This document shows positions 15,157 to 29,273 of a stretch of DNA of 64,000 nt, piece after piece. Positions within the stretch are counted from its first letter, which is position 1. Each line of letters starts with the position of its first letter. The notes under the pieces are model-generated. The model was given only the letters and a program-made list of their open reading frames with translations, was not told the DNA's origin and ran no database searches. The DNA is from a phage. The position numbers and the translations under genes were made by a program. The stretch is from sequence record PZ445447.1; one strand, written 5' to 3'.

Positions 15157-15179
15157 TATTTTAAGTTATCAGATTGCCA

Positions 15180-15660: not shown

Positions 15661-15757
15661 AATATTTTAGTGGATACTATTTTATAGGAAATTGTTACGG
15701 AGGGTAATTAGCGTGCTAATTAAATTTATTAAATGCGAGGAGTTCTCATTTAGAATT

Positions 15758-16353: not shown

Positions 16354-16438
16354 TGGTTGACAGCTCGGACAGTTCTTGTTATTCTTATCCTCGCAAGGTG
16401 AACAACACCACACCAATTAACAGAGAGGATAAAAAATC

Positions 16439-16638: not shown

Positions 16639-16667
16639 TTGACATATGGTCTGACACAAAATACACT
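16639..16667 (+). promoter_or_regulatory. sigma70-type promoter
   Basis: TTGACA, 17 nt spacer, TACACT. Confidence 0.55.
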
Positions 16668-16699: not shown

Positions 16700-17098
16700 A
16701 TGAAAACCACTACCTTTAATTTTGATAATGCGGACTTTTCTTTTTCTGATGTCAAGAACTGCCGCCGTGATCGTGGATTTTACAAGGCTTATAATCTGGT
16801 GGGCCTGGACGATGACAATAATTTGCACGAAGTAGCTGAGATCCGGTATTATGCCGCCGCCAGTGGTAACACTCACTACTGCGTGTTTTGGATTCACGAC
16901 AACAAGAACAATAAGTACGGTTATACTGGCGGCAAGGCGAGCGGTCACGGTTACGATAAAGCTAACGCAGCACTTGAGAGCGCATTAAATGCTATGGGGA
17001 TCACTGCCGACGGCTGGATCTACGAAGAAGAGTTTTTGTCGGCACTTGCTGACCACCTGGGCTATAAAAAGCACATTGTGACATGCGCCCACGAATAA
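16700..17098 (+). CDS. hypothetical protein
   Basis: AAGAGGATAAAATCATG; 132 aa. Confidence 0.6.
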   Translation: MKTTTFNFDNADFSFSDVKNCRRDRGFYKAYNLVGLDDDNNLHEVAEIRYYAAASGNTHYCVFWIHDNKNNKYGYTGGKASGHGYDKANAALESALNAMGITADGWIYEEEFLSALADHLGYKKHIVTCAHE

Positions 17099-17142
17099 AA
17101 ATCATTGACACGCTGCAAAATTTAAGTAAACTAGACACAAAA

Positions 17143-17161
17143 GGCGGGAATGTTTCCCGCC
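17143..17161 (+). promoter_or_regulatory. 5' UTR hairpin (GGCGGGAA..TTCCCGCC family)
   Basis: Perfect 8 bp stem between promoter (TTGACA at about 17104) and RBS; related hairpins at 19689-19707 and 23788-23804. Confidence 0.5.
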
Positions 17162-17181
17162 AGCACAAAGGAAAAAAGATC

Positions 17182-17577
17182 ATGAATAAGAACGTACGCC
17201 GCATCATGAACGAACTGGCAAACGATGAAAAAATTATTGACATGCATTTAGTCAACATTTGCCGCCGTTGTGTAACATATAACAACCGCGCCGCAAAAGC
17301 GCGTGAGATGAACGCAAAAGGCACCTTAAAGCCCTTTCAGGTGGTTGTAAAATCTATAACCAGTGCAGCAGGCCAGGCGCATGACCACAACAACGGGAGC
17401 ACTAATATTGATCCGTCTTACGTAATGAAACGGATCCGGACTTGCAAGAATAAAGAGCAGGTGTATAATGTCATAGACTGGTTGGATTCTATGGGCGATG
17501 TGGTTTACAATAGGTTTTCTGCAGCTATCGAGATCCAGCTTGACAGGTTGGACGGTAAAGTACTGAAAACTTACTAA
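17182..17577 (+). CDS. hypothetical protein
   Basis: Start moved to ATG downstream of promoter, hairpin and AAAGGA RBS; in frame with ORF 17083-17577. Confidence 0.55.
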   Translation: MNKNVRRIMNELANDEKIIDMHLVNICRRCVTYNNRAAKAREMNAKGTLKPFQVVVKSITSAAGQAHDHNNGSTNIDPSYVMKRIRTCKNKEQVYNVIDWLDSMGDVVYNRFSAAIEIQLDRLDGKVLKTY

Positions 17578-17578
17578 G

Positions 17579-17626
17579 ATTATTTTTAGATGGCCTTGAC
17601 TTCAGGGCCATCAATAAAGTAAACTA
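17579..17626 (+). repeat. repeated intergenic cassette (promoter-plus-stem-loop-like), copy 1
   Basis: GATTATTTTTAGATGGCCTTGACTTCAGGGCCATCAATAAAGTAAACT; near-identical copies at 18209-18256 and 21949-21994. Confidence 0.7.
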
Positions 17627-17657
17627 ATCCCAGTTAAGCGAAAAAGGAGGCTTGAAG

Positions 17658-17777
17658 ATGAGCACTGCACGCCAACACACAAAGGTAACGATTATCGTTT
17701 GCATCATTGGTTACATCCTGGCGCAAATGTTGATGGGTAGCGCCAATGATTTCGCAAAATTTTTCTTAGACTTTTAA
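17658..17777 (+). CDS. hypothetical small membrane peptide (39 aa)
   Basis: AAAGGAGG RBS 7 nt upstream; hydrophobic core VTIIVCIIGYILAQMLMG; not in ORF track. Confidence 0.45.
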   Translation: MSTARQHTKVTIIVCIIGYILAQMLMGSANDFAKFFLDF

Positions 17778-17805
17778 TTGACAAGCTAACTTAAATCAGT
17801 ATAAT
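17778..17805 (+). promoter_or_regulatory. sigma70-type promoter
   Basis: TTGACA, 16 nt spacer, TATAAT. Confidence 0.7.
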
Positions 17806-17857
17806 ACTAAGCACATAAACGGGAAAACTTCCCAGAACACCAAAAGGAGAAAACATT

Positions 17858-18208
17858 ATGAATACTTCCATCACTATGACCGCCGAAGAAAAAGCCCTGC
17901 AGATCGCCGCTCTGAAAAAACAGATTGCAGAACTTGAAGACAAGATCGACAATTTTGAAATCGACGAAGACAAGTACGACGATAAATATGATGAATGGTT
18001 AGACGAGATCTACGGCGAAATTATGATCGGAAACATCTCTTTTCTTCCGTCGCGTATCCTCAAGGAGCTAGATCCTATCGCTTACCGCTGCGGATTTAGC
18101 GACTACATCGACAGCCTGGATATTGAGGACGATGAAGAATACCAGGAATTACAGACAGAGTTAGAAGAAGCAAAAGAAGAGCTTGCAGAACTGGAAGAAA
18201 ACGAGTAA
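17858..18208 (+). CDS. hypothetical highly acidic protein
   Basis: AAAGGAGAAAACATTATG leader; many D/E residues; 116 aa. Confidence 0.6.
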   Translation: MNTSITMTAEEKALQIAALKKQIAELEDKIDNFEIDEDKYDDKYDEWLDEIYGEIMIGNISFLPSRILKELDPIAYRCGFSDYIDSLDIEDDEEYQELQTELEEAKEELAELEENE

Positions 18209-18256
18209 GATTATTTTTAGATGGCCTTGACTCCAGGGCCATCAATAAAGTAAACT
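18209..18256 (+). repeat. repeated intergenic cassette, copy 2
   Basis: GATTATTTTTAGATGGCCTTGACTCCAGGGCCATCAATAAAGTAAACT directly after a stop codon. Confidence 0.7.
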
Positions 18257-18297
18257 TTATACTGTTAACACTGAACTAATGCATAGGAGTTAAAACC

Positions 18298-18543
18298 ATG
18301 GCAGCACTAATCACCAAATATTATGCCCCTACCAACACCAAAAGCGCCCGTATCATGGTAAAAGGATTCGGACGTAAAAAGGTGTACACCTGGGATTATG
18401 CCTTAGACACGGAAGACAACTACACCAACGCGATGACCGATTTTATTAATGATCTGAACACGCGGATCTTGACAAATTATAAAATTACCGATATTGCCTA
18501 TATAGGGGAAGGCGGGATCTGTTTTGTCGGTATCGTCAAATAA
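18298..18543 (+). CDS. hypothetical protein
   Basis: ATAGGAGTTAAAACCATG leader (same as gene at 22912); 81 aa. Confidence 0.6.
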   Translation: MAALITKYYAPTNTKSARIMVKGFGRKKVYTWDYALDTEDNYTNAMTDFINDLNTRILTNYKITDIAYIGEGGICFVGIVK

Positions 18544-18554
18544 GCTGTTTTTTC

Positions 18555-18590
18555 GGTGGTCCTGGTAGCAGGGCCATCTATAAAGATAGT
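18555..18590 (+). repeat. degenerate copy of the intergenic cassette
   Basis: GGTGGTCCTGGTAGCAGGGCCATCTATAAAGATAGT shares the GGGCCATC-ATAAAG core. Confidence 0.4.
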
Positions 18591-18618
18591 TTATCAATAC
18601 AATGAAAGGAGAAAGTAC

Positions 18619-18972
18619 ATGATCAGCGGGGCAAGTTTTATTATTGGCGCTATTGCTACGGCTTTAATTGTAAACAAGATCCAATCTAAAAACGAAAAAG
18701 ATAGCAACGCCCTTACAGAATACCCGTTTTGGGTATTCAACGACAATGAAGACTATATTATCAAGTACAAGAATGAGAAGGGCGACCAGGTAACACCGCG
18801 ACCGATCCCGGCTTACAAGATGCAAGAAACACTATACCGCCTAAAGGCTGGAGGCGCAAAAATCGTAGACTTTTGGGGATACGATCACACAGATCAGGAA
18901 GTTATAAAGCGCCGTATCCGGGCTATTCAGGCCAATATTGAAGTTAGCAAGGGGGGAATATATGAAGATTAA
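18619..18972 (+). CDS. hypothetical membrane-anchored protein
   Basis: AAAGGAGAAAGTACATG; N-terminal TM helix; in frame with ORF 18556-18972. Confidence 0.55.
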   Translation: MISGASFIIGAIATALIVNKIQSKNEKDSNALTEYPFWVFNDNEDYIIKYKNEKGDQVTPRPIPAYKMQETLYRLKAGGAKIVDFWGYDHTDQEVIKRRIRAIQANIEVSKGGIYED

Positions 18973-19159
18973 TTTTGAGAAGATTGTAAAGCGATCTCAT
19001 GCTTCCGAAGAGCTGCCGGAACGCCGCCAGCGCAACAATAAACTGAATAAGCCAAAAAGATTTGGGAAGATCTGGCGGAATCATTATGATCGCAAATTAC
19101 CGGGCCTGCTTTTGGAACGTGAACGACAGGCGGAACGATACCGCCACAAAGGCAAATAA
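18962..19159 (+). CDS. hypothetical small basic protein
   Basis: AAGGGGGG RBS; R/K-rich; 65 aa. Confidence 0.5.
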   Translation: MKINFEKIVKRSHASEELPERRQRNNKLNKPKRFGKIWRNHYDRKLPGLLLERERQAERYRHKGK

Positions 19160-19167
19160 CAACCAAC

Positions 19168-19194
19168 GCCCCGCCATTGTGCGGGGCTTTTTAT
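19168..19194 (+). terminator. rho-independent terminator
   Basis: CGCCCCGCC-ATTGT-GCGGGGC then TTTTT. Confidence 0.7.
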
Positions 19195-19340
19195 TTCTAT
19201 CCTACAAATAGCGCCCCTGGTTGGCCCTGTAAGCGCCAAAAAGGCCCCACCTATGCAATCGCCCCCCTTTAACCTGAAAACATCGCTTAGGGCCGTTTTA
19301 TGGCGTTAAAAATATCATTGACAGTGATTTTATTTAAAGC

Positions 19341-19368
19341 TTGACATCTTAAACAGGTTAGCTATACT
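19341..19368 (+). promoter_or_regulatory. sigma70-type promoter
   Basis: TTGACA, 16 nt spacer, TATACT; a second TTGACA lies 25 nt upstream. Confidence 0.6.
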
Positions 19369-19400
19369 AACCACATCAAAGAGAGAAAGGAGTAAACGCC

Positions 19401-19661
19401 ATGCGTAAATTAAAAAATTTTGATAAAGTTGATGTTGTCCTGAATAATTTTTACTACTGCAACAACAAGGCCATTTGGTGGCGTGATAGTTCCACCGATA
19501 AAGTCAAGGCGCGCTTTCTCCAGGGGCACTGGCAAGGCCGCCCAGTGATTAAAATCATGGGGCAATTGGTAGCGTTTAAAAATTGCCGCCGTGTTGATGA
19601 CGTTGAAGAGATCTTGAATATTTTACGCCACAATAATTTAAAAAATAGTGTTGACAAGTAA
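19401..19661 (+). CDS. hypothetical protein
   Basis: GAGAAAGGAG RBS; 86 aa. Confidence 0.6.
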   Translation: MRKLKNFDKVDVVLNNFYYCNNKAIWWRDSSTDKVKARFLQGHWQGRPVIKIMGQLVAFKNCRRVDDVEEILNILRHNNLKNSVDK

Positions 19662-19679
19662 ATCTCAATAAGTATACTT
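19651..19679 (+). promoter_or_regulatory. sigma70-type promoter
   Basis: TTGACA, 17 nt spacer, TATACT; followed by hairpin GGCGGGAAGTTTTCCCGCC. Confidence 0.65.
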
Positions 19680-19735
19680 AAGCACACAGGCGGGAAGTTT
19701 TCCCGCCACTAACAAAGAAAATAGGAGAAAATATC

Positions 19736-20359
19736 ATGACCACCGTTAACATTACCACAGGTTGCAATTTATCTTTCGACGTGCTGACCGACGAACAAAA
19801 AGAAAAAGCTATTGAAATGGTCCGCGAAAGAGAAGAACACAGCGGAGAGGATTTTTTCGCAGAAAGTGTAATTGAATATTATAAAGAACAAGTTTTTCCA
19901 GAGTACGGCCTTGAAGATACCGATGTACATTGGTCCGGCTTTTGGTGTCAAGGCGATGGCGCGTCAATTAGTGCTGAAAATGTAGACTTAGAGAAATTCT
20001 TGCGTAAAGTCAAGGCCCTGACCAAGTTCCGATCAATTCGTCACTTGTTCGGCACAATGCACGATGGCGAACTATCAGCCAGTGTTGAACGCGACAAGTA
20101 CAGCCATTACAGCCATGAAAACACTGTAAGCGGATATATTGATACTACCTGGCTAGATCTGACCGCAAAACAAGAAAATAAAGTAGAAGATCTGGAAGAG
20201 CTGATCACCGAGACGGTACGGGAGCTATCCCGCAAGGTTTATGTAGACCTGGAGGAGGCCTATCTTGAACAGTTTACTACCGAAAACCTGATCGGCCTTA
20301 TTGAAGCCAATGATTGGCGGTTTGATGTGGATGAATATGGAGAAATGAGTTTTTCATAA
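19736..20359 (+). CDS. hypothetical protein
   Basis: AATAGGAGAAAATATCATG leader; 207 aa; no confident family. Confidence 0.6.
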   Translation: MTTVNITTGCNLSFDVLTDEQKEKAIEMVREREEHSGEDFFAESVIEYYKEQVFPEYGLEDTDVHWSGFWCQGDGASISAENVDLEKFLRKVKALTKFRSIRHLFGTMHDGELSASVERDKYSHYSHENTVSGYIDTTWLDLTAKQENKVEDLEELITETVRELSRKVYVDLEEAYLEQFTTENLIGLIEANDWRFDVDEYGEMSFS

Positions 20360-20450
20360 ATAAAGTGTTGCAATAATCTAAAAACCTGCTATATTAAAAC
20401 TTAAGGGGGCGAGATGACTTGCCCCCACACAAAACAAAGAGGAAAACATC

Positions 20451-20831
20451 ATGAAAAACACTACTAAAGCTATTGACACCGTTATGTTTAACCTGGTTAC
20501 ATTCCGTGAAGATATGAAAGATCTTCCACGTGAAACAGTGTGCGACCATATCGAAAACTATCGCAAACTAATCAAAGAGTTGCCTTTAAAACGTGACCAG
20601 TACGCGGCTAACGCTATGCTTAACGCCATGATCAAGAAAATGATTCAGTGCGATTTGACTTTAGCTTATGATTATGCAGGTGGTCGTTTTGCAGTATACA
20701 ATCAGCCCGTGCCTGGTATGAGCACCACAGAAGAATTGCACGCGTTAAATCTAAAACAAGACGTATGGGATAACATGCCCCGCGTGGTGGTGTGGGCAGA
20801 AAGCGGAAAGATTTACGGCGATAATTTTTAA
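20451..20831 (+). CDS. hypothetical protein
   Basis: Promoter, hairpin GGGGGCGAGATGACTTGCCCCC and AAAGAGGAAAACATCATG leader. Confidence 0.6.
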   Translation: MKNTTKAIDTVMFNLVTFREDMKDLPRETVCDHIENYRKLIKELPLKRDQYAANAMLNAMIKKMIQCDLTLAYDYAGGRFAVYNQPVPGMSTTEELHALNLKQDVWDNMPRVVVWAESGKIYGDNF

Positions 20832-20840
20832 TCAGGTAAC

Positions 20841-20866
20841 AGGCGGCATATTTGCCGCCTTATTGT
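20841..20866 (+). terminator. rho-independent terminator
   Basis: AGGCGGCATATTTGCCGCCT then T-rich. Confidence 0.65.
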
Positions 20867-20895
20867 TAAACAGAACTGCAAAAGAGGTACATAGA

Positions 20896-21267
20896 ATGGA
20901 ATTTATTATTTTGGCTGTAGTAGTTGCCTTGTTCAACGCCTGGATCGCTGGCAAGATGGGTAGATCCGCTTTTCTATGGTTTGTTATATCTATTTTCCTG
21001 GGAGTGGTTGCAACTATTGTATTGGTTATCCTTGCAATTGTTGACAAGGGGAATAATAGAAAGGGTAAAGTATTTTCAGACCTGTACGACGCTCAAACGT
21101 TTGTCAACGCCTATTATAGTGATCTTCCAGTCTCCCTACGTTGCAGCCTTGCACAACAGGTTTTCGATGAAGCTAAAACCAGAGATCACGCCCATGAGAT
21201 TTGTTTAACTGAGGCGGATCGCCTATTTGAGAGGAATAGAAAATATGTGGACCAGCCGTTTAAATAA
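20896..21267 (+). CDS. hypothetical membrane protein (two predicted TM helices)
   Basis: AAAGAGG RBS; in frame with ORF 20863-21267. Confidence 0.55.
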   Translation: MEFIILAVVVALFNAWIAGKMGRSAFLWFVISIFLGVVATIVLVILAIVDKGNNRKGKVFSDLYDAQTFVNAYYSDLPVSLRCSLAQQVFDEAKTRDHAHEICLTEADRLFERNRKYVDQPFK

Positions 21268-21377
21268 TGCCACGTTAATTAACCCCTTTAGTGAAGATTT
21301 GAAGCCAGCCGCCTGGCGGGATGGATTCAATAACGAAAGCTTTATTTTCAGGCCTGATCTTAAGGAATTTTATAACA

Positions 21378-21503
21378 ATGGATCGAACAACGACAGAGAT
21401 AATTTTTCTTGTAATGTGCGTGGTGATAATACTCCTGGGGGCCATTGCAAACCACGTCACTGCTAACAGGAGGAAAGGGGGAGACGATGACACCCAAGGA
21501 TAA
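21378..21503 (+). CDS. hypothetical small membrane peptide (41 aa)
   Basis: AAGGA upstream; TM helix IIFLVMCVVIILLGAI with charged tail; the overlapping ORF 21245-21466 is N-rich low complexity. Confidence 0.4.
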   Translation: MDRTTTEIIFLVMCVVIILLGAIANHVTANRRKGGDDDTQG

Positions 21504-21606
21504 GCCCCGCACCGATAAGGCGCGCCGTGTTATGGTATGGCTTGAGATCATCGCCCTTGAAATATTGTTAGGCGTAGGGATGTATTTTATCGCTGTAAGT
21601 AACTGA
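21487..21606 (+). CDS. hypothetical small membrane peptide (39 aa)
   Basis: AGGAGGAAAGGGGGAG RBS; basic N-terminus then TM helix; not in ORF track. Confidence 0.4.
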   Translation: MTPKDKPRTDKARRVMVWLEIIALEILLGVGMYFIAVSN

Positions 21607-21745
21607 TAACGGCCCCGATCCCTGGGGCCTAACTTTTCAAATTTTTTCTCCCTGAGTGTTGCAATCCGATCCAGAATATGGATAATAACAATCAACGGGG
21701 AGACACTCCCCACCGCATAGACAAAGTTCCAAAAGGAGAAACAAA

Positions 21746-21946
21746 ATGAGCAACAATATCCGCGTTATTAACTTCAAAAAAGAAGAAAAAATTGCCGTGC
21801 TGATTGACGGTCAAGAAATCTTTAAAGGTGATTATGAAGATCATCAAACGGCGATTAGTATCACTCGCGTGATTGGTTACCATAATTTTTACCCTCAAGG
21901 CGCTGAGGCAGCAGTAAAACGAATTAAAGAGATTGTAGGCCTGTAA
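21746..21946 (+). CDS. hypothetical protein
   Basis: TTGCAA...TGGATAATAA promoter-like sequence, hairpin GGGGAGACACTCCCC, AAAGGAGAAACAAAATG. Confidence 0.6.
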   Translation: MSNNIRVINFKKEEKIAVLIDGQEIFKGDYEDHQTAISITRVIGYHNFYPQGAEAAVKRIKEIVGL

Positions 21947-21948
21947 AA

Positions 21949-21994
21949 TTTATTTTTAGATGGCCTTGACTCCAGGGCCATCAATAAAGTAAAT
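21949..21994 (+). repeat. repeated intergenic cassette, copy 3
   Basis: TTTATTTTTAGATGGCCTTGACTCCAGGGCCATCAATAAAGTAAAT. Confidence 0.7.
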
Positions 21995-22031
21995 TTAAAC
22001 CCTGTTAAAATAATCAGTGCAAAAAGGAGTA

Positions 22032-22337
22032 ATGATCATGTTTATCCAGGCTAATAATCTTTATTTCTTTGATGGTCAGATCGTAGACGGCGTGGAGGTG
22101 GAAATCACCGGGTGCCCTGGCGGTCAGGTTATGACTTTTCGGAATAATGCCTTTGATGATTCTCATATCGTTATGAGAATGGAAGTTAGTAAGCTGGATG
22201 ACAAGAAAACACTTATCGACTATTCCGTCAAAGATCATCCAGACTACCACATGATCTATGGTGATTTGTGCATTGTTGACCGTGACAAGGTGGGCGGCAT
22301 TGTGATCGCTATTGTGAACGATGTTTTCTCAAACTAA
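22032..22337 (+). CDS. hypothetical protein
   Basis: AAAGGAG RBS; in frame with ORF 22017-22337. Confidence 0.55.
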   Translation: MIMFIQANNLYFFDGQIVDGVEVEITGCPGGQVMTFRNNAFDDSHIVMRMEVSKLDDKKTLIDYSVKDHPDYHMIYGDLCIVDRDKVGGIVIAIVNDVFSN

Positions 22338-22354
22338 TTTCAGCAGGTGATTTT

Positions 22355-22705
22355 ATGAAAGTAAAACTATATTACCTTAATGAGCTTAACCCCCTTGCCC
22401 AGGTCCGCGCCCTGGCTAATACCTTGATTTGTGAGAAATCTGTATATTGTGTTGAGCTTAACGCCATGCGTGAACGTCTCAAAGGTGGTTACTTTGACAT
22501 CCATGCTGCAATCAACGGCCTGAATATGGAATTTATCCGCTTACGTAACAGCCGCCAGAATCTGGCAAGAATGGAACAAGATCCGGCCCACCTTCGTAAG
22601 CTGGTTATTGAAAATCATCTGATGTTTAATGCCGATGGTGATTATTACCATTTTCACCGTAAACGCTGGTACCGTAGCGGCAATATAGGAAAGAATGCAA
22701 AATAA
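22355..22705 (+). CDS. hypothetical protein
   Basis: 116 aa; followed by two hairpins. Confidence 0.55.
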   Translation: MKVKLYYLNELNPLAQVRALANTLICEKSVYCVELNAMRERLKGGYFDIHAAINGLNMEFIRLRNSRQNLARMEQDPAHLRKLVIENHLMFNADGDYYHFHRKRWYRSGNIGKNAK

Positions 22706-22742
22706 GGCCCCTGGCAGGGCCTGCAGCGATATAATCACATAA

Positions 22743-22774
22743 AGGCTATGCGGTTGCATAGCCTTTATTATTTT
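22743..22774 (+). terminator. rho-independent terminator
   Basis: AGGCTATGCGGTTGCATAGCCT then TTATTATTTT. Confidence 0.7.
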
Positions 22775-22911
22775 GGCGTTACAGCGGCCCCCAAGGCGCT
22801 TAAAAAATTTTTAAAGAAGTACTTGCATCAAGTCCTACAATATGGATAATAAAGGGTGTCGGGGGGCGGGGAGGCCTCCAATCATTAACCGGATAGATAG
22901 GAGTTAAAACC

Positions 22912-23196
22912 ATGGCTATTGTTACCGTTGGCGATGTAATAGAAATGGAAGCCAAATACTTAAAAGCTGGTATGCATATCATACGGAATGATCAAGAATT
23001 GTTATTAACCATGGTTGAATATAATCCCGGTCAGGATTATCCAAGCATTGACTACTTTTTCCAGTATGTTGATGAAGAATTAAAAGAGGATGAGGCTTAT
23101 CAGGGTGAATTTTGTAATTTCTTTTGCTCTGATGAGGTTGTAAAAGTTATCTATCAACCTGGCGTACCTTTCCCGCTGCACGCTATCAATAAATAA
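22912..23196 (+). CDS. hypothetical protein
   Basis: ATAGGAGTTAAAACCATG leader; 94 aa. Confidence 0.6.
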   Translation: MAIVTVGDVIEMEAKYLKAGMHIIRNDQELLLTMVEYNPGQDYPSIDYFFQYVDEELKEDEAYQGEFCNFFCSDEVVKVIYQPGVPFPLHAINK

Positions 23197-23252
23197 ACCT
23201 GGCGGGGCCGAAAAGGCCCCCCAATTATGAAAATAAAGAGAGGCAAATCATC

Positions 23253-23486
23253 ATGATGGAACAAATTAAACGCGCCGAGGCTATTAATGGCAACGTGATC
23301 TATTTTGTCAGCAAAAACGAAAAAGGCGTACCCTATGCGGCTGTAATAGTACAGCCTGACGGCGATTATTGGTGCACTGTGTACGGCGCTTATTCTTTTG
23401 GGCGTCCAGTGCATGATAAAATTTTGAAAGTAGCGAACCCTACCGGGAAAAATATTACAGCAGAAAAATTTTTTGAAAATAGTTGA
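23253..23486 (+). CDS. hypothetical protein
   Basis: AAGAGAGG RBS; 77 aa. Confidence 0.55.
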   Translation: MMEQIKRAEAINGNVIYFVSKNEKGVPYAAVIVQPDGDYWCTVYGAYSFGRPVHDKILKVANPTGKNITAEKFFENS

Positions 23487-23510
23487 CATGACCTTATAAG
23501 ACTGTAGAAT
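23483..23510 (+). promoter_or_regulatory. sigma70-type promoter
   Basis: TTGACA, 16 nt spacer, TAGAAT; followed by hairpin GGGGGCAACAAGCCCC. Confidence 0.6.
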
Positions 23511-23561
23511 ATAAATCAAAGGGGGCAACAAGCCCCACCAACCACAAAGAGGATAAAAATC

Positions 23562-23741
23562 ATGGCTATTATTGCAAAGACTGAGATCGTAGGCTTAGAT
23601 TCTATTCTCCTCGCATATGAGGAAGCTATAGAAATGTATGTGGTTTCCTATGGTGAATATATCCGTGAATATAAATCTATTGATCTAGCTTTTGAATGTT
23701 ATATTCGCCAGGTCAATAAAGCATATGATGATTATCGTTAA
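23562..23741 (+). CDS. hypothetical small protein (59 aa)
   Basis: Complete promoter-hairpin-AAAGAGGATAAAAATCATG module; clean 59-codon frame; not in ORF track. Confidence 0.5.
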   Translation: MAIIAKTEIVGLDSILLAYEEAIEMYVVSYGEYIREYKSIDLAFECYIRQVNKAYDDYR

Positions 23742-23747
23742 AATAGT

Positions 23748-23776
23748 TTGACAACAGTCAACAATCTGGTAAAGTG
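23748..23776 (+). promoter_or_regulatory. sigma70-type promoter
   Basis: TTGACAACAGTCA (same -35 context as the promoter at 8022); followed by hairpin GCGGGAATACTTCCCGC. Confidence 0.5.
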
Positions 23777-23823
23777 TACTACATAGCGCGGGAATACTTC
23801 CCGCCATTAATGAGGGTAATTTA

Positions 23824-23961
23824 ATGAAAACTTTCAACGCAACAGCCTCGACAATTGGTTATATTATTACAGTACAGGCCGTGGATCTGGTAGCAGCAGC
23901 AAACAAGATTAAAAAGATGATTCCGCCAGGTAGTGAATTTTCCGTTTGGGAAGTAAAATAA
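23824..23961 (+). CDS. hypothetical small protein (45 aa)
   Basis: ATG after AATGAGGGTAA leader; frame verified codon by codon to TAA at 23959. Confidence 0.4.
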   Translation: MKTFNATASTIGYIITVQAVDLVAAANKIKKMIPPGSEFSVWEVK

Positions 23962-24044
23962 ATCTTGACAATAGTTTATTACTTGATAGACTGTATTTCG
24001 TAGGGCGGGGCAATAAGGCAACGCCCATTAATGAGGGTAGAATC

Positions 24045-24149
24045 ATGTTAGAGAAAATTTTCACGGTTGTAGTAGTTGGCCTGGCATTATCGGTTGGAGT
24101 GGTTGCAACTATGGCTAACATGATCCTATCTTCCCACGGTATCGGTTAA
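24045..24149 (+). CDS. hypothetical small hydrophobic peptide (34 aa)
   Basis: Promoter (TTGACA 23965), hairpin, AATGAGGGTAGAATCATG leader; sequence LEKIFTVVVVGLALSVGVVATMANMIL. Confidence 0.45.
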   Translation: MLEKIFTVVVVGLALSVGVVATMANMILSSHGIG

Positions 24150-24159
24150 GGTGAATCAA

Positions 24160-24375
24160 ATGATCACGAATAAGACAGGTAAAACAGAATTTTTACGCGG
24201 CTTGCAAATAGGTAAGCCTGAGATCTGGCATTGCACTAAAACACCACGTGACGAAATGAAAGACTTCACCGCCACGCTGCAACGGGTAAAGATATCCATC
24301 ACGCAGAAAAAGGCCTTGATAGTGGTGGAAGGTGAGATCCCTCAAACCGTTGTTATAGTTGAGCGTACAGCATAG
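24160..24375 (+). CDS. hypothetical protein
   Basis: AAGGTG RBS; 71 aa. Confidence 0.5.
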   Translation: MITNKTGKTEFLRGLQIGKPEIWHCTKTPRDEMKDFTATLQRVKISITQKKALIVVEGEIPQTVVIVERTA

Positions 24376-24466
24376 TTTAATTTATAGCGATACCTGAAAA
24401 TTAACCAATAAATCATAAACAGGCGGTTACCGCCGCCTTAAACGTAGCAGAAAGAGGCTAGACACA

Positions 24467-24751
24467 ATGAAAAAGATGATCGCAGTAGTTGCCCTGGTTG
24501 TTGGACTTAATGCGCCTGTAATGGCTAAAGAGCTGGCAAAAGAGGTTAATCTAACGGATATCCATGCCGTCAATCAAATCGGGGTTACTTATCGCTTATG
24601 CCTTGCCGCTAAAACTTTTAATGACGGCACAACAGAGTACTACGGATTCGAGGGTATCCGGTGCGGTGAGCTTGCTCGCGACCTTAAGGAAGATCCAGAC
24701 CTGGAAGATCTGCCCATCACCGTAAACGGTAAAGCTTACGTAAACCGTTAA
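24467..24751 (+). CDS. hypothetical secreted protein
   Basis: AAAGAGG RBS; N-terminal signal-peptide-like MKKMIAVVALVVGLNAPVMA. Confidence 0.6.
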   Translation: MKKMIAVVALVVGLNAPVMAKELAKEVNLTDIHAVNQIGVTYRLCLAAKTFNDGTTEYYGFEGIRCGELARDLKEDPDLEDLPITVNGKAYVNR

Positions 24752-24900
24752 CCGTGAAAAAGATAATCATTACCTTGGGGATTGTGGCGGGATCGCTGGC
24801 GCTCTTTCCCCTTATGGTTAGATATGTGCTGATCAGTATTGTCCTGGTGGTCAGTGATCTACTAGAAACGGTTGGCACCTTGTTTTAAAGAGCGATAAAA

Positions 24901-25092
24901 ATGAATGTTGAACAAGTTAGAAAGGTATTGGCGGTACTGCGTTATCATAATCATAGAAAGGTCATAGACGATCCTGATTATGTTGATTCAAGTCTGGAAG
25001 AGGATACACTACAAGCCATAAGTAACATGCAAGAATTGCTAAAGCGCATGACAGAGAAAAACCGACCGGACTACATAGGCGAAAAAATATAA
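24901..25092 (+). CDS. hypothetical protein
   Basis: ORF track; weak RBS; terminator-like hairpin downstream. Confidence 0.45.
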   Translation: MNVEQVRKVLAVLRYHNHRKVIDDPDYVDSSLEEDTLQAISNMQELLKRMTEKNRPDYIGEKI

Positions 25093-25151
25093 TCCTTATT
25101 AACTAGAAAACAGGGCTTGCAATGGTCCTGTTTTTTGTTATACTTATTACA

Positions 25152-25199
25152 CGGCAGGCACCTGGCGACGGGGGGAGACAATCACCGGGCCTGCCTGTC
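25152..25199. repeat. GC-rich imperfect palindrome element (copy 3, inverted)
   Basis: ACGGCAGGCACCTGGCGACGGGGGGAGACAATCACCGGGCCTGCCTGT; reverse complement matches the elements at 15791 and 15926. Confidence 0.55.
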
Positions 25200-25220
25200 A
25201 TATAAGAACTATAAAAACCG

Positions 25221-25249
25221 TTGACATCTGCCAGGTGGTGGGGTAACAT
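25221..25249 (+). promoter_or_regulatory. sigma70-type promoter
   Basis: TTGACA, 17 nt spacer, TAACAT; followed by hairpin GGGCAAAAGTGCCC. Confidence 0.55.
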
Positions 25250-25303
25250 TTATCTTGAAGGGGCAAAAGTGCCCACACAACAACCAGAAGAGAGGAAAAC
25301 ATT

Positions 25304-25576
25304 ATGTCAAGCTGGATTAATCAAGAAGTCGAATCACGTTTTAATGCTATTTGGGATCTCATCGAAAAAGAGGACGGAACATCAAGCCCTTATCTCAATA
25401 ATCTTGAATTCCATTTCGTGGAAGCGATGAACGCAGAACATGATCACGAAGGTGGTGCGGATGAGTTCGCTAAAGGGTATGGCTTCAACAATGCCAACGA
25501 AATGATCGAGGCGGTTGTACTCCAGGCTGAGGAAGATTATCAATTAAAAACGCTTGAATTCTGCCGCCGTAAGTAA
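25304..25576 (+). CDS. hypothetical protein
   Basis: AGAAGAGAGGAAAACATTATG leader; 90 aa. Confidence 0.6.
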   Translation: MSSWINQEVESRFNAIWDLIEKEDGTSSPYLNNLEFHFVEAMNAEHDHEGGADEFAKGYGFNNANEMIEAVVLQAEEDYQLKTLEFCRRK

Positions 25577-25636
25577 TAAGATAATGACACGGGCCAAAAG
25601 GCCCACTAATCAGAACCACACAAAGAGAGAAAGAAA

Positions 25637-25855
25637 ATGACAACCCGTAAAATTAAAGTTGTTTGCATTGAATCGACTGGGGGCGCTTTTGTAGTTGGTC
25701 AGGAATATAATGCGGTTTTAATGGGTACGGATTGGAAGGTTAAAGGCCTTAATGGTTACGAGTACGGCACTACTTGCGGCTTGCGTGGTCGAATCGGATA
25801 CGTGAGTTTAGACAACAAAGAAAAATTTGTTTTCGACACCGTTGTGAGTAAATAG
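25637..25855 (+). CDS. hypothetical protein
   Basis: AAAGAGAGAAAGAAAATG leader; 72 aa. Confidence 0.55.
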   Translation: MTTRKIKVVCIESTGGAFVVGQEYNAVLMGTDWKVKGLNGYEYGTTCGLRGRIGYVSLDNKEKFVFDTVVSK

Positions 25856-25933
25856 CATGAATTGCTAAAGACTGATCTGCGAACTGCTGTATTATCAACT
25901 AATCAAAACGAACCGCATAAAGAGGAAAACATC

Positions 25934-26197
25934 ATGAAACGTCTGGATCAGCTTAAATTAGTTCAGTACATGGCCTACAGAATTCTTGAAGTCCAAAAAG
26001 GTAGCAAAAAAGAGGTTTGCGAGAAAGCTTATAAGATCTTTACTCGCAAAAAAGATGACTGGATGCTACGCCAGACCAAAAAATCCGATATCCTGGGGTA
26101 CCTGGAAGAAGAGATCCGGCTTGAAGAACAAGAAGAGATCCGCCGCAGTGAGGCAGATTATCAGGCAGCTTGGGAAAACTGGATGAGCAACAAATAA
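25934..26197 (+). CDS. hypothetical protein
   Basis: AAAGAGGAAAACATCATG leader; in frame with ORF 25862-26197. Confidence 0.55.
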   Translation: MKRLDQLKLVQYMAYRILEVQKGSKKEVCEKAYKIFTRKKDDWMLRQTKKSDILGYLEEEIRLEEQEEIRRSEADYQAAWENWMSNK

Positions 26198-26761: not shown

Positions 26762-26780
26762 TTTTTTAACTGAATTATCA

Positions 26781-26805
26781 AGGGGCTTAGGCCCCTTTCT
26801 TTTTG
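26781..26805 (+). terminator. rho-independent terminator
   Basis: AGGGGC-TTAG-GCCCCT then TTCTTTTTG. Confidence 0.7.
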
Positions 26806-26806
26806 T

Positions 26807-29273
26807 CTGCTCTTCCCCCTACCATAAACGGCCCTACCTGGCAAGTGGAATAATTGACGAGCCATCAATCCCACACACTGTACAAACATACATATAAAAT
26901 AACTATTGCATAATTTTTCATTGTGTGGTAGCAGGGCCATTTTTACACGTTTTTCCTTCCAAAATTGCACGTAATGCAGCATTTGCACAAAATTTAACCT
27001 GATGCATATATTCAATAGCTTGTCAACAACTAAAAATCTTTATAAGTCATACACTTACATAACTACAAAAGCGTTTTCTACGTGAAAAATCGAGTATAAC
27101 TATAGCCGCCAGATCTCAGAATTTACGTACGCTCGCCATTCTATAGCCTGCTAAGCATTTATTCCAACCATAGAATAACGGAATAGTCAATACCTGCATA
27201 AAATAATTATTCGTGTAAACTGCATAACATAAATCGGCCCAGGTGTCAACATTTTTCGTAAACAGTCTGGAATTGTCACGTTAGGTTACCATAAGCAGAG
27301 AAATCTTCAGTCGTCTAATGTTTACTGTACGTTACTATATTAACTGAAATCATTAGATGACTAATAGAAAGATAAGAAATAATTAACAATACAATTATTT
27401 TATCTGTAACAATAAGGCAACTATGCAAACGAATGGCATGGCGCGACGGAGTCGCGACATAATATAAAAGCAGTAACCATCACCCCCGTGATAGTTTGTC
27501 TGCAAACTATTAATCAGATCATAGTTGCCTTGTATTTAGTTAATCATGACATAACAAGCAAGGCAACTATAGATCTGCTAATAGTTGCCCTGCTTTTATA
27601 TTATGTCATGCTAATTATAATCAGTGCGATTATTGTCATGTATAATTATTGTCATGCAAACGAATGGCATGGCTGATTATCGGTGTGTAAACAGTCAATC
27701 ATGTAAATGGTTAGCATGTGAACAATCAGGAATGTAAACAATCCAGTGTGTAAACTAATAGGTGTGTAAAAGTGTCATGTTGTGTCAGTTAGGTCACATT
27801 ATGTCAGACAAGTTTTTCTCCTCTTTGTCAAGTGCTGCATGAAAAATTTACAAGCTTGTATGGTAGCATTTTTGCGGCCCTGTTTACATTCAGGAGTGTA
27901 TGTATAATCCTTGGTGTGTGGGCGTTTAGACGTCTGGACGGTAAGAAGTCTGCAGGTTAATATCTAATCTATCGGCTGCTAACTATATCCCACACAAATA
28001 GTAAGAAATATAATTGTTATGTGCGTAAACAGTAACCCATGTTATCAATCCCTGTATGTATCGCCAGTGGTGCGCATAATGGGTATTATGTTAAATTGCC
28101 CGTAATGATAAAGGTTCTCACAATGATAGGTATTCTCATTCACCCTCACAAAATAGATTGCAAATGTTGTGCCACTGTGTGAACGGCCTCACCTATTAAT
28201 TTGCCTCACTGCCTCGATATTTGAGAATTATTATAAGAATGAGAAGTATTCCCATTTCGTCCGCCTGGCAGCACTCCAGTCGCTACGGCTCATGACAGGG
28301 CAGCACTCCTGTAGGTCAGGTCAAAATCGTGGTAGAATTGGGCCTGTTCAGATATTTCTGGCTGACTCTTCAGGTCTGTGTGGGAAAAGCCAACCTCTCC
28401 GGCGGGGCAGGGGGTCATGACGGGAAAATTGCAGGTCAATTAAAAAATTTACGTGGTGTATGAAGCGCTCTTCAGGTAAGGCAGGTATTAGAGGATGAAA
28501 CCCTCTTCAGGCAATGATATTTGTGGGTGTGATATTTGCTGGAAAGCCAGATATGACGGGACTCCCGGCGGGGATGGGGTAGTACAGACAGGGAAAATAT
28601 GGGGATGTAGTTGGGTAAATTGATCAGGCAGGTAGAGTATGGATTATGTTACAGGTATGTTAAATATGGAGGTTGAATATCTGTAAGATTTGTGTGTAAA
28701 ATCAAAGACTTAAGTGGTGTTGTGGTATTTTCTATAAATAATTCAAGTTTAATAGGTAATATTTGTCTCTATCCACTTTGTGTGGTAAACAGATTCAGAT
28801 GAAATTGGTTTACAAGTGTATACATAATATACAAATTAAAGATACAAGAAACCCCCCTCCCCTTCGGCTACCATTCACCTTTTCCTCTGACTGGTACTTA
28901 AACACTTATTCAGACTCTTCAGGTTATCACCCATATATCATATGGCAGTGACTGGTGTCCTCCGGCCCCTCTTTCGTCACCCGTCCGCTTCGCCATGCTA
29001 ATGCCATAGCCAATGGTTCGGTTGTTCACCCTGTTCACTCAGGTGTATCTCCATACCCCTTCAAACCGAAGAGAACAGAAAACCCGAATTACTCGGTAAA
29101 AGAAAAGAGAAGAACTTAATTTTATCAAGATAGGCAAGAATGTCAAGGCATGACTGCTCACTAAACAAGCAAACAGTCATGTGTGGGAGGTAAGTGATTG
29201 TGGTTGTAGGAAATTTAGTTGAAAGATGTGTTATAGGTGCTTCCAGCACTTTAGCCGGGTAGCTAATTGTGTG
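26807..29273. other. large non-coding, repeat-rich region between convergent gene blocks (candidate origin, packaging or regulatory hub)
   Basis: No ORF with credible RBS; AT-rich; inverted repeats around 27425-27610 (ATAGTTGCC in alternating orientation); five TGTAAA(C) repeats 27680-27770; CTCTTCAGG four times 28366-28930. Confidence 0.5.

Follow-up and report, generated by a model that had tools for sequence, protein, structure and literature searches.

Promoter-early stem-loops (PeSLs) are known from the T4-like phages RB49/phi1, PST/T4 and nt-1/KVP40 (Arbiol et al. 2010, PMC2839356; Comeau et al. 2014, PMC4122927). In RB49, most stem-loops overlap the promoter hexamers or sit between them, outside the unit's own transcript, and a position downstream of the -10 and immediately ahead of the start describes only a minor subclass in the 2010 paper (PMC2839356). 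A second point of reference comes from E. coli, where 5'-terminal stem-loops or 5' base-pairing shield mRNAs against RppH and RNase E (review PMC3997798), with ompA and papA as the stabilising examples (Emory, Bouvet and Belasco 1992, as cited in PMC3997798). As for the promoters themselves, early promoters of sigma-70 type have already been predicted for rV5 (Kropinski et al. 2013, Table S4, PMC3606486), and the UP/-35 consensus reported for Certrevirus is the same (Buttimer et al. 2020, PMC7344957); the rV5/Certrevirus consensus, AAAA-N3/4-TGTTGAC-N17-TATAAT, is concentrated among short hypothetical ORFs (PMC3606486; PMC7344957). The rV5/Certrevirus papers describe promoters and U-tract terminators only, without the promoter-proximal hairpin, shared leader or recombination junctions reported below.

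The window analysed here, 64,000 nt, belongs to Escherichia phage MaxBurger (Vequintavirus, an rV5-like coliphage). Comparing its sequence reveals a repeated unit of about 85 bp that runs from the upstream gene's stop codon, at or within which it begins, to a small ORFan's start codon, in the order sigma-70-type promoter, GC hairpin, U-poor and (as predicted) mostly unpaired leader, SD and ATG. The cargo proteins are all of unknown function. A sequence-only reading had proposed such a module ahead of at least ten genes. Sequence reading, our own scan and intergenic folds confirm it 5' of nine of the ten (17182, 17858, 19736, 20451, 21746, 23562, 23824, 24045 and 25304), and two that had been missed (22912 and 25637) bring the count to 11. 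A scan of the whole MaxBurger genome recovered 11 hairpin modules, 10 of them within 17.1-25.3 kb (an 8.5 kb stretch). The modules are as follows (z, hairpin energy compared with dinucleotide shuffles of the respective 5' region).

17105..17184, plus strand: P17105; -35 TTGACA 17105-10, -10 TAAACT 17127-32, hairpin GGCGGGAA-tgt-TTCCCGCC 17143-61, ATG 17182; z -4.8; rV5 P194.
17778..17860, plus strand: P17778; TTGACA-16-TATAAT (12/12), weak hairpin (C)GGGAA-aac-TTCCC(A) 17820-34, starting 14 nt past the -10, ATG 17858; z -2.7; rV5 P192.
19651..19738, plus strand: P19651; TTGACA-16-TATACT, hairpin GGCGGGAA-gtt-TTCCCGCC 19689-707, loop inverted (AAC) in 10 relatives, ATG 19736; z -6.3; rV5 P185.
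20368..20453, plus strand: P20368; TTGCAA-16-TATATT (TGn extended -10), hairpin GGGGGCGAG-atga-CTTGCCCCC 20405-26 (one G.U pair), ATG 20451; z -6.5.
21659..21748, plus strand: P21659; TTGCAA-16-GATAAT, hairpin GGGGAG-aca-CTCCCC 21697-711, ATG 21746; z -3.8.
22823..22914, plus strand: P22823, missed by the earlier reading; TTGCAT-16-GATAAT, G-rich irregular hairpin about 22862-22879 (GGGGG-cgg-CCCCC in relatives), ATG 22912; z -2.4.
23483..23564, plus strand: P23483; TTGACA-16-TAGAAT, hairpin GGGGC-aacaa-GCCCC 23522-36, ATG 23562; z -3.2; rV5 P174.
23748..23826, plus strand: P23748; TTGACA-16-TAAAGT, hairpin GCGGGAA-tac-TTCCCGC 23788-804, ATG 23824; z -2.8.
23965..24047, plus strand: P23965; TTGACA-16-TAGACT, imperfect hairpin GGGCG..(14 nt)..CGCCC 24003-26, also in Justusliebigvirus and Phapecoctavirus, ATG 24045; z -4.9.
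25221..25306, plus strand: P25221; TTGACA-17-TAACAT, hairpin GGGCA-aaag-TGCCC 25260-73, ATG 25304; z -3.0; rV5 P168.
25554..25639, plus strand: P25554, missed by the earlier reading; weak promoter within the 3' end of the upstream gene, TTGAAT-17-TAAGAT, hairpin GGGCC-aaaa-GGCCC 25591-604, ATG 25637; z -4.9.

The promoter formula given earlier, TTGACA-N16/17-TAtAaT, needs amending for two of the listed cases: those of 20451 and 21746 have a TTGCAA -35, and the latter has GATAAT as its -10. GC hairpins are present at nine of the ten, though 'short perfect' does not suit 24045, with its 5-bp outer stem and irregular interior, and that of 17858 has only 5-6 bp. The tenth case, gene 25934, drops out: its TATTAT lies 22 nt from the sole TTGCTA, the hairpin is absent (dG -0.3, z +0.3), and only the leader and ribosome site are shared. 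This and further elements of the stretch are listed here.

25862..25936, plus strand: leader/RBS AAAGAGGAAAACATCATGAAA only, identical to 20436-56, with neither hairpin nor correctly spaced -35; upstream of gene 25934.
19319..19403, plus strand: hairpin-less tandem TTGACA promoters 19319 and 19341, A-rich leader, ATG 19401.
23204..23220, plus strand: hairpin GGGGCC-gaaaa-GGCCCC and leader without a promoter, 5' of 23253.
17575..17625, plus strand: class B repeat, a long irregular hairpin directly after the stop codon with TTGACT in the loop; copies at 18206-18256, 18541-18591 and 21945-21995.

Further hairpin-less promoters similar to 19319/19341 occur at 16357, 16639 and 26264; rV5 P186 and P164 correspond to 19341 and 26264, as P194, P192, P185, P174 and P168 do to modules. 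A second promoterless hairpin lies at 24421-24438; thus the hairpin is able to exist without a promoter of its own (23204, 24421). The class B repeat does look like a processing site, unlike the promoter hairpins.

The modules closely resemble PeSLs, as a new example of this known kind of element. Of known systems, the PeSLs of RB49/phi1 come closest: they have in common with the modules the AAAGTGTTGACA upstream motif, stems made of a G-run and a C-run, the A/C-rich leader and ORFan cargo. With PeSLs generally, the modules share an AT-rich stretch that leads into GT(G)TTGACA, a consensus -10, a stable stem-loop of G-run/C-run type, a leader rich in A and C, a strong SD, many copies clustered among small ORFans, and deletion or replacement junctions between close relatives inside the units, giving chimeric units. 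Among the cargo genes here, that of P25221 has an RB49 homologue, RB49p266 (36% identical). Two differences stand out. First, PeSLs belong to the Straboviridae, whereas the lineage here is the Vequintavirinae, with the same module also in Justusliebigvirus and Phapecoctavirus. Second, the stem-loop here always lies 8-14 nt downstream of the -10, and is therefore inside the transcript of its own promoter. Mini-circles and terminator activity enter the comparison on the PeSL side.

The spacing is tight on the promoter side (-10 to hairpin, mean 10.4, sd 1.6) and looser towards the gene (hairpin to ATG, 18-34 nt, sd 5.3). In unrelated mycobacteriophage modules the gap is 10-11 nt in 10/10 copies, within a search range of 8-13. 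Both observations speak for a hairpin coupled to the start site. The tight -10/hairpin spacing could also be the legacy of a common ancestral module, which would speak against coupling by selection.

Hairpin energies lie at z = -2.4 to -6.5 in all 11 modules, as against +0.3 to +0.5 for the nearby hairpin-less promoters P16639, P25862 and P26264 in the same test; P19341, also hairpin-less, gave -2.0, its sole predicted pairing being a weak stem far downstream beside the ATG rather than promoter-proximal. Across 13 Vequintavirus genomes, 0/60 columns of the -35 hexamers vary, against 22% in the spacer, and the hairpin loops are the most variable part of the module (30% of columns), being inverted between orthologues. 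Stems of at least six unrelated sequences, 5-9 bp long, occupy the equivalent position, and one compensatory change, G-C to C-G, was seen, in P20368, whose loop is inverted in relatives as well. The more stable strand was the sense RNA in 22 versus 4 among 45 unique hairpins. Internal non-Watson-Crick pairs in the stems were G.T on the sense strand in 6 cases and A.C in 0, an asymmetry that amounts to about three independent events within stems, or about 6-7 versus 3 overall, and is not significant. Taken together, the comparisons suggest that the hairpin is selected as a structure.

One group of stems does share its arms. GGCGGGAA-N3-TTCCCGCC occurs 3 times against 0.00 expected, and the CGGGAA-N3-TTCCCG subfamily (17143, 17820, 19689, 23788) might be read as an operator near +14, at which a dimeric phage or host DNA-binding protein shuts the promoters off. 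The arms are identical at four promoters here, recur as GGCGGGAAA-tgg-TTTCCCGCC at several Justusliebigvirus promoters, and overlap +1 to +25, the classic repressor position. However, stems unrelated to these occupy the equivalent place in seven other modules, paralogy or gene conversion accounts for the recurrence of the arms, and no cognate regulator was identified, which makes an operator quite improbable. The earlier reading had also suggested an antitermination or processing site. As with the lambda nut sites (boxA plus boxB), a small hairpin sits in the early-transcript leader, at the right location just past early promoters, and a few loops are GAAAA-like (23204, as listed). In contrast to nut sites, the loops differ among modules and invert between orthologues, there is no known N-like protein, a search beside the hairpins found no boxA-like sequence, and the hairpins matched no Rfam family; the antitermination proposal is not sustained. 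Processing is unlikely too, with stems below RNase III length. We regard nut/boxB-like or processing signals as very improbable.

Whether the hairpins terminate transcription deserves closer attention, since attenuation or termination of read-through is the function proposed for PeSL stem-loops (PMC2839356), and here too each cassette might be transcriptionally isolated from those upstream. Like intrinsic (rho-independent) terminators, the hairpins are intergenic and GC-rich; some GenBank records label them as such, that of EdH4 annotating exactly these hairpins as 'terminator'. The PeSL211/210 stem-loop, likewise without a classical U-tract, cut lacZ expression as much as rrnB T1. The promoterless hairpins (23204, 24421) point the same way, as do RB49 and the local class B elements, where the module's own transcript does not include the stem-loop. 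Unlike intrinsic terminators, however, the hairpins have no U-tract and stand downstream rather than upstream of the promoter. The first 10 nt past them contain 10% T, whereas six canonical terminators (five in 17-26 kb and one at 11.6 kb) have 4-8 T within the next 10 nt; the phage's U-tract terminators lie at 19168, 20841, 21611, 22739 and 25104. All 11 hairpins follow their own promoter, where an efficient terminator would abort that promoter's transcripts at about +25. Moreover, the rV5 terminator list (ARNold/MFOLD) holds U-tract terminators only and does not call these hairpins (PMC3606486). We therefore favour the view that the module hairpin is not a terminator, and consider attenuation of read-through unlikely. 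Termination of antisense transcription, with T-rich sequence next on the minus strand, is scarcely probable: our scan made four terminator-like calls on that strand (17161-43, 17834-20, 21715-693, 23536-22), but its T-richness is the mere complement of the A-rich discriminator/start region, U's follow the stem directly in only about 3/10, and no minus-strand genes or promoters face the hairpins within this unit.

Because the stems lack the U-tracts that nearby canonical terminators possess, we prefer a stabilising and insulating 5'-proximal RNA stem-loop to the terminator, operator and nut-site readings. By analogy with RB49, the shared function could be read-through attenuation, and hairpins without promoter (23204, 24421) and promoters without hairpin (19341, 26264) also sit uneasily with this explanation.

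The roles that we infer for promoter, hairpin and leader run as follows. An A-tract followed by (GT)GTTGACA-N16/17-TAnnnT would, judging from sequence and conservation, be read by host sigma-70 RNA polymerase, so that cassette expression would need no phage factor and would presumably be early. The start is predicted 7-8 nt past the -10, at a conserved pyrimidine-purine step; no mapped transcription start sites were found in the literature for any rV5-like phage. From this predicted start, the G-run/C-run GC stem would form in the module's own mRNA at about +3 to +6, 2-5 nt past the start (7-8 nt for 17858), and would also be carried in any read-through transcript from upstream. The position matches that of protective 5'-terminal stem-loops, and the anatomy fits the transcript-stabilising role offered in the earlier reading. 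As in ompA/papA, a stable hairpin lies a few nt from the predicted 5' end with an accessible ribosome site next, and the phage mRNAs would meet the host RNase E/RppH pathway; unlike ompA/papA, the element is repeated as part of a recombining cassette, its starts are only predicted, and free tails of the predicted length, 2-5 nt, are borderline. Full 5' protection has an upper limit on the unpaired tail, and RppH requires merely 2-3 free nucleotides. The predicted tails (2-5 nt; 7-8 nt in P17778) are at or past this limit, a point against the protection role.

The stem might thus serve in three ways: as a 5'-proximal stem-loop impeding RppH and the 5'-end-dependent entry and scanning of RNase E, as an exonuclease barrier at the 3' side of the upstream cistron, and as an insulator that stops upstream sequence pairing with the ribosome site. 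The A/C-rich, U- and G-poor leader (55% A, 17% C, 17% G and 11% T, where T of the region is 26%) is predicted to be largely unpaired with few U-rich RNase E sites, and the SD/ATG would thereby behave alike whatever the upstream sequence.

Comparison among relatives also reveals recombination of the cassettes. Chimeric modules have arisen by deletion or replacement at 19653/20358 and 25634/25903, with overlaps of 13-36 nt; in the latter deletion the left junction is the P25554 leader and the right junction the 25862..25936 region. Three alleles at 23.5-24.1 kb have their edges at a -35 or a hairpin: the FV3/YP-6 replacement has the P23483 -35 as its left junction, the P23748 hairpin is the left junction (23785-95) of a replacement in 8 relatives, and the P23965 hairpin the right junction, at 24001. 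Cassette behaviour shows as well in identical 20-21-nt ribosome-site regions that stand ahead of unrelated ORFs. The S127 insertion junction, 19318-23, falls at the hairpin-less tandem promoters. Junction ends lie inside modules in 8/16 cases, with modules occupying 14.5% of the region (p = 8e-4), an enrichment that vanishes with intergenic DNA alone as background (6/9 intergenic ends, modules 52% of intergenic DNA).

Such junctions raise the alternative that the palindromes act as DNA with no RNA role, as hairpin- or cruciform-prone recombination or template-switching sites, or sites for recombination proteins, spreading with the cassettes. Arbiol et al. speculate on a recombination protein binding GGGG...CCCC (PMC2839356), which counts in its favour, as do the junctions in or at hairpins (23785-95, 24001) and the loop inversion between orthologues, a signature of strand switching within a palindrome. 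Yet other junctions fall at a -35 or in a leader, a DNA recombination site would need no fixed distance from the -10, and both the tolerance of G.T but not A.C and the more stable sense strand point to RNA. We consider a DNA-only role improbable.

As to what the modules mean for the phage, these comparisons show them to be cassette junctions of the PeSL type that are repeated and recombine, the main point absent from the earlier reading. The likeness of the units allows homologous recombination from one to another, which deletes, inserts or swaps the ORFs that they flank. Overall, we lean towards the view that this rV5-like phage carries PeSL-like composite cassette junctions with a 5'-proximal stem-loop that acts as RNA.

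The sequence-only reading had proposed at least ten small genes in this region, each preceded by a consensus promoter, a short GC hairpin, an A/C-rich leader and a ribosome-binding site. Reading of the sequence, scans with the consensus and of our own, and intergenic folds bear this module out before the genes whose ATGs lie at 17182, 17858, 19736, 20451, 21746, 23562, 23824, 24045 and 25304. The tenth, 25934, falls away: it has the leader and the ribosome site, but lacks both a hairpin (dG −0.3, z +0.3) and a −35 at the proper spacing. Two members absent from that list were found: 22912, whose hairpin is G-rich (promoter TTGCAT-16-GATAAT), and 25637 (TTGAAT-17-TAAGAT, GGGCC-aaaa-GGCCC). The promoters are of the TTGACA/TTGCAA-N16/17-TAnnnT type, with an A-rich decamer upstream of the −35 in nine of ten modules. 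The stems comprise 5–9 bp (GGGGC.., GGGGAG.., GGCGGGAA..) with dG from −5.5 to −18.4, and each of the 11 hairpins is more stable (z −2.4 to −6.5) than folds of its own 5' region after dinucleotide shuffling. None of the four neighbouring promoters, at 16639, 19341, 25862 and 26264, has a promoter-proximal hairpin; three of them give z values of +0.3 to +0.5, and the −2.0 at 19341 comes from a weak stem far downstream, beside the ATG.

The 8.4-kb stretch 17000–25400 is, by database search, 100% identical to Escherichia phage MaxBurger (Bas54, MZ501093.1), a Vequintavirus (rV5-like) of the subfamily Vequintavirinae, and is matched by 253 phage records in all; the window corresponds to positions 66025–130024 of the MaxBurger record. 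The module cluster lies within the final 10 kb of a 38-kb plus-strand unit, which begins at a divergent promoter region adjoining an anti-sigma factor gene, runs through rIIA/B, helicase, primase/helicase, DNA polymerase and then ~55 small ORFs, and ends at window position 26761. A genome-wide scan of MaxBurger recovered 11 modules, 10 of them within window 17.1–25.3 kb (8.5 kb), with thresholds that left out 17778, 22823 and 25554, all inside the same cluster stretch. The eleventh, the only one found outside the cluster, lies 1.8 kb left of the window (locus L133):

Record 64239–64325: module TTGACT-17-TAAGAT, GGGGAGG-cact-CCTCCCC, ACAAAAACTAAGG, before a putative N6-adenine methyltransferase gene

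All ten cargo proteins scanned matched only unknown-function families in PHROGs, and a Pfam scan of the same ten gave no family above threshold. The product of gene 25304 shares 36% identity with RB49p266.

Two features of the surroundings are recorded here. About 2.5 kb without annotated genes (26762–29273) lies between the convergent plus and minus units, is the 'non-coding' box on the rV5 map, and holds a terminator at 26780–26797 and, at 26926–26945, a variant arm (TGGTAGCAGGGCCATTTTTA) of the class B repeat described below. At 15458–15643, a 47–57-nt repeat (AAATTTCTCAGTACTCGATCTGTTTTTCGTTTT..GGATTTT) occurs three times at spacings of 65 and 74 nt. It falls within two tiny annotated ORFs (15451–15597 and 15603–15707) of doubtful coding status, beside a 294-nt gap (15157–15450), and may be a regulatory or origin-like repeat.

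The first base of the hairpin follows the −10 hexamer by 8–14 nt (mean 10.4, sd 1.6, n = 11), whereas its distance to the ATG is looser (18–34 nt, sd 5.3). In 8 of 11 modules a pyrimidine–purine step occupies nt 7/8 after the −10, and in the rest nt 6/7; together with the usual sigma-70 start point, this places the stem at a predicted ~+3 to +6 (+8/9 for 17858). The same geometry predicts an unpaired 5' tail of 2–5 nt (7–8 nt for P17778, the module with its −35 at 17778), to be set beside the ompA-type limit of ~2–4. When folded, the predicted 5' untranslated regions form a single 5' hairpin, with the leader, Shine–Dalgarno (SD) sequence and ATG otherwise largely unpaired; the sole exception is a weak 4-bp stem across the SD of the 21746 leader. 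The leaders are 55% A and 11% T, in a region that is 26% T. Partly because the stem is tied more tightly to the −10, and thus to the start site, than to the ATG, we favour an RNA-level role for the hairpin at the predicted 5' end of the transcript, and internally in read-through RNA. Host RNA polymerase would recognise the promoter, as its consensus and the invariance of its −35 suggest. The hairpin would protect the message from RppH and from RNase E 5'-end-dependent decay, would give the upstream cistron a 3' barrier, and would insulate a deliberately unstructured, U-poor ribosome site. Stabilisation of mRNA by 5' base-pairing is established in E. coli (PMC3997798), and the transcript-stabilising role that had been suggested for these hairpins is plausible from the sequence.

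The hairpins could instead be attenuators or terminators of read-through, and one RB49 stem-loop did behave as a strong terminator in a reporter. What follows the stems, however, argues against classical termination here. The A/C-rich 10 nt after them contain only 10% T, unlike six canonical terminators with 4–8 T of 10 (five in the region and one at 11.6 kb), so the U-rich tract is lacking; the region's classical U-tract terminators stand elsewhere, at 19168, 20841, 21611, 22739 and 25104. In addition, a strong terminator at +25 would defeat its own promoter. We therefore consider this reading unlikely, and the same A/C-rich composition speaks for the 5'-end role. Termination of antisense transcripts is highly improbable, and was rejected as the main explanation, the T-richness on that strand being the complement of the A-rich start region.

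What is conserved in the module emerges when the window is set against twelve further Vequintaviruses (loci L001, L003–L007 and L125–L130). Across these 13 genomes, 0 of 60 columns vary in the −35 hexamers and 7 of 60 in the −10 hexamers, against 22% of columns in the spacers, 15% in the stems and 30% in the loops. In one stem a G-C pair has become C-G by compensatory change (GGGGGC.. to GCGGGC..GCCCGC), and cassettes that have replaced these in other genomes come with a promoter of their own and a different hairpin, with the position unchanged. Two loops are inverted relative to orthologues in L001 and L003–L007 (GTT versus AAC at 19697–19699; GACGT versus ACGTC at 20412–20417), the signature of strand-switch inversion inside a palindrome. 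As these loops are exact reverse complements, loop identity is immaterial; with different stems at one place and freely changing loops, it is structure that is kept, not sequence, a further reason for the RNA-level role. Three other readings were weighed. First, antitermination, also raised by the sequence-only reading, is disfavoured: the loops differ and invert where a nut-like site would conserve its boxB loop, the boxA-like YGCTCTTWA occurs at chance frequency and never beside the hairpins, which led us to reject the nut/boxA reading, and an Rfam scan of the whole window matched no family. A nut-like or processing site is thus very improbable. Second, the CGGGAA-N3-TTCCCG subfamily could be the operator of a dimeric repressor. 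The half-sites CGGGAA/TTCCCG are confined to 4 of 11 modules, with unrelated stems elsewhere, where an operator should recur at all the promoters, and we see little chance of this. Third, the palindrome might act in DNA, in recombination. Since the hairpins were chosen for complementarity, covariation among paralogous stems would be circular evidence. Strand-specific wobble pairs served to tell an RNA role from a DNA role. Internal non-Watson–Crick pairs are G.T on the sense strand in 6 versus 0 instances, and the sense strand folds more stably as RNA in 22 versus 4 cases. With only ~3 independent within-stem events, the test leans weakly to sense RNA, and we regard a DNA-level palindrome as quite unlikely.

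Having favoured an RNA role at the 5' end, we would note what counts against it: the predicted free 5' tails (2–5 nt) are borderline, the RB49 stem-loops lie outside their own transcripts, the terminator activity of one of them has been mentioned, hairpins stand without promoters at 23204 and 24421, and the common spacing may simply be inherited. In its favour, modules from an unrelated lineage have the same promoter and start-proximal hairpin geometry. A pattern search turned up by chance, in high-GC, Thonko-like mycobacteriophages, repeated TTGACA-N17-TAACTT/TAATGT, 10–11 nt, GGCGGG-N5-CCCGCC, SD and ATG (IMG/VR contigs, loci L152, L174, L178, L183, L190 and L194). Mycobacterium phage Thonko, to which L152 is 99.5% identical, carries four copies in 3.5 kb. 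The palindromes of Cluster O mycobacteriophages (PMC4351075) proved unrelated, as most do not lie at promoters. Justusliebigvirus (phi92-like) and Phapecoctavirus have the same architecture (TTGACA-16-TAnnnT, ~10 nt, GGCGGGAAA-tgg-TTTCCCGCC, leader, ATG). A scan of viral contigs with GGCGGGAA-N3-TTCCCGCC returned chiefly unrelated GC hairpins and gained little.

The known system that the modules most call to mind is the promoter-early stem-loop (PeSL) described in RB49 and phi1, both T4-like phages. It is a 60–100 bp intergenic unit that combines a strong sigma-70-like promoter and an AT-rich stretch with a G-tract/C-tract stem-loop, an SD and an ATG; PeSLs cluster among ORFans and mediate modular shuffling there (PMC2839356, PMC4122927). 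In experiments, PeSLs are further marked by a stem-loop that lowers expression downstream and by mini-circles that arise through recombination between units. A typical RB49 unit, read directly, is TAAAAAGTTGTTGACA-GGGGATC..GATCCCC-TATAAT-ACACACATACCGAAACGA..GGAGAATCAAAATG, and the upstream motif, stem type and leader type are common to the modules here. Also shared are the strong sigma-70-like promoter and the AT-rich stretch that precedes its −35, the stable G-tract-then-C-tract stem-loop within the same short intergenic unit, the extent of the unit from the stop codon upstream as far as the SD/ATG of a small ORFan, the many copies clustered in a hyperplastic region, and the indel and replacement junctions between close relatives that fall in the units. 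Stop codons of upstream ORFs lie within or abut the −35 hexamer (T-TGA-CA, TAA-TTGACA) at 23483–23488 and 25221–25226, and also at 17775–17783, and RB49 has a likewise packed stop codon and −35 (TAGTTGACA); such cassettes are packed without spare bases.

There are also differences. In most RB49 units the stem-loop lies between the hexamers or covers the −10, whereas all 11 here are downstream of the −10 and within their own predicted transcript. Five stem-loop positions have been described for PeSLs, and 8–14 nt after the −10 corresponds only to the rarest subclass, extending into the transcript. The described hosts of PeSLs are T4-like myoviruses (Straboviridae), and this phage, a member of the Vequintavirinae, falls outside that range. 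The modules are arguably a positional variant of the PeSL, and are best filed as PeSL-like cassette junctions in a lineage where these had not been described before, with the stem-loop consistently in the transcript.

Pairwise genome comparisons, which yielded ~10 deletion, insertion or replacement events, illustrate the cassette behaviour. Phage YP-6 lacks the 207-codon gene at 19736, with a junction at 19653|20358 (13-nt overlap) that joins the stretch upstream of P19651 (AAAAATAGTG) to the TTGCAA −35 of P20368, both modules being named by −35 position. Gene 25637 is absent in most relatives, through a junction at 25627–40|25895–912 (25634|25903; overlap 13–36 nt) that fuses the hairpin at 25591 with the ribosome-site region at 25919. 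The 23.5–24.1 kb locus has at least three alleles, bounded on the left by the P23483 −35 (23488) or inside the 23788 hairpin (23790), and on the right by the 24003 hairpin (24001) in two allele comparisons and inside gene 24045 (24094) in the others. Half of the distinct junction ends (8/16) fall in modules, which make up 14.5% of the region (p = 8e-4); against intergenic DNA alone, 52% of which is module, the 6 of 9 intergenic ends show no enrichment beyond background. The chimeric junctions are, to our reading, the stronger argument for cassettes. Furthermore, two pairs of unrelated ORFs share identical strings that extend from the ribosome site as far as the second codon:

20436–20456 and 25919–25939: identical 21-nt string, AAAGAGGAAAACATCATGAAA
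18283–18302 and 22897–22916: identical 20-nt string, ATAGGAGTTAAAACCATGGC

Such identities are far above chance in 12.5 kb and suggest that the 5' cassette boundary has undergone recombination or gene conversion.

The region contains a second, different repeat (class B), with only four copies in the whole genome, each between a gene driven by one of the modules described so far (class A) and the next gene:

17575–17625: class B repeat, 51 nt, directly after a stop codon
18206–18256: class B repeat, 51 nt, directly after a stop codon
18541–18591: class B repeat, 51 nt, directly after a stop codon
21945–21995: class B repeat, 51 nt, directly after a stop codon

In the RNA fold (dG −20.7 to −27.8, z −4.9 to −7.9), a 2x3 internal loop separates a GC upper stem of 10 bp from an AU lower stem of 7–13 bp, and the hairpin loop encloses a −35-like TTGACT. 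In the divergent copy at 18541 the lower stem is rewritten, yet all pairs are kept through G.U wobbles on the sense strand, which indicates that the structure is that of sense-strand RNA. With its T-run 5' and its A-run 3', class B forms an intrinsic terminator in neither direction. It may serve as a processing site of the RNase III type, or represent a subclass of PeSL whose stem covers the −35.

Parts of these modules have been described earlier. The rV5 paper lists the module promoters P194, P192, P185, P174 and P168, and its P186 and P164 are the hairpin-less promoters 19341 and 26264; its terminators are U-tract ones only. The same consensus for the promoters is given in the Certrevirus paper, and the hairpins are unmentioned in both. 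Our literature search found no paper connecting PeSLs with rV5-like phages, and no usable transcriptome or start-site map for the latter. In the EdH4 record (GenBank MK327930.1; locus L001 3144–3162, 9495–9509 and others), promoter-proximal hairpins are labelled 'putative transcriptional terminator'. This is probably a mis-annotation, since the hairpins lack U-tracts and lie downstream of promoters, and it is likely to spread among Vequintavirus records; the present analysis corrects annotations of this kind.

At its broadest, PeSL-type units might be an integron-like 'plug-and-play' standard for expression and recombination across Straboviridae, Vequintavirinae and Stephanstirmvirinae, unrelated virulent coliphages, a proposal we make tentatively and think unlikely as it stands. 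On that proposal, the flanks (AAAGTGTTGACA ... A/C leader ... GGAG-N-ATG) would let ORFan cassettes cross between phage families co-infecting E. coli. The rV5 lineage would have moved the stem-loop into the transcript, where it would double as a 'punctuation mark' protecting 5' and 3' RNA ends, alongside the processing-like class B hairpins, and the mycobacteriophage promoters with hairpins at +4 would be evidence that selection for 5'-capped early mRNAs had been convergent. As compact, strong and context-insulated expression units (promoter, 5' hairpin, unstructured leader, ribosome site), the modules may also be of use in E. coli engineering. A stem-loop inside the predicted transcript makes transcriptional, RNA-stability and recombination roles separable by simple reporter constructs. 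The PeSL concept, of cassettes that both express and shuffle accessory genes, would reach beyond the T4-like phages to the large rV5/phi92 group, whose members have been widely isolated and find use in phage therapy and the BASEL collection.
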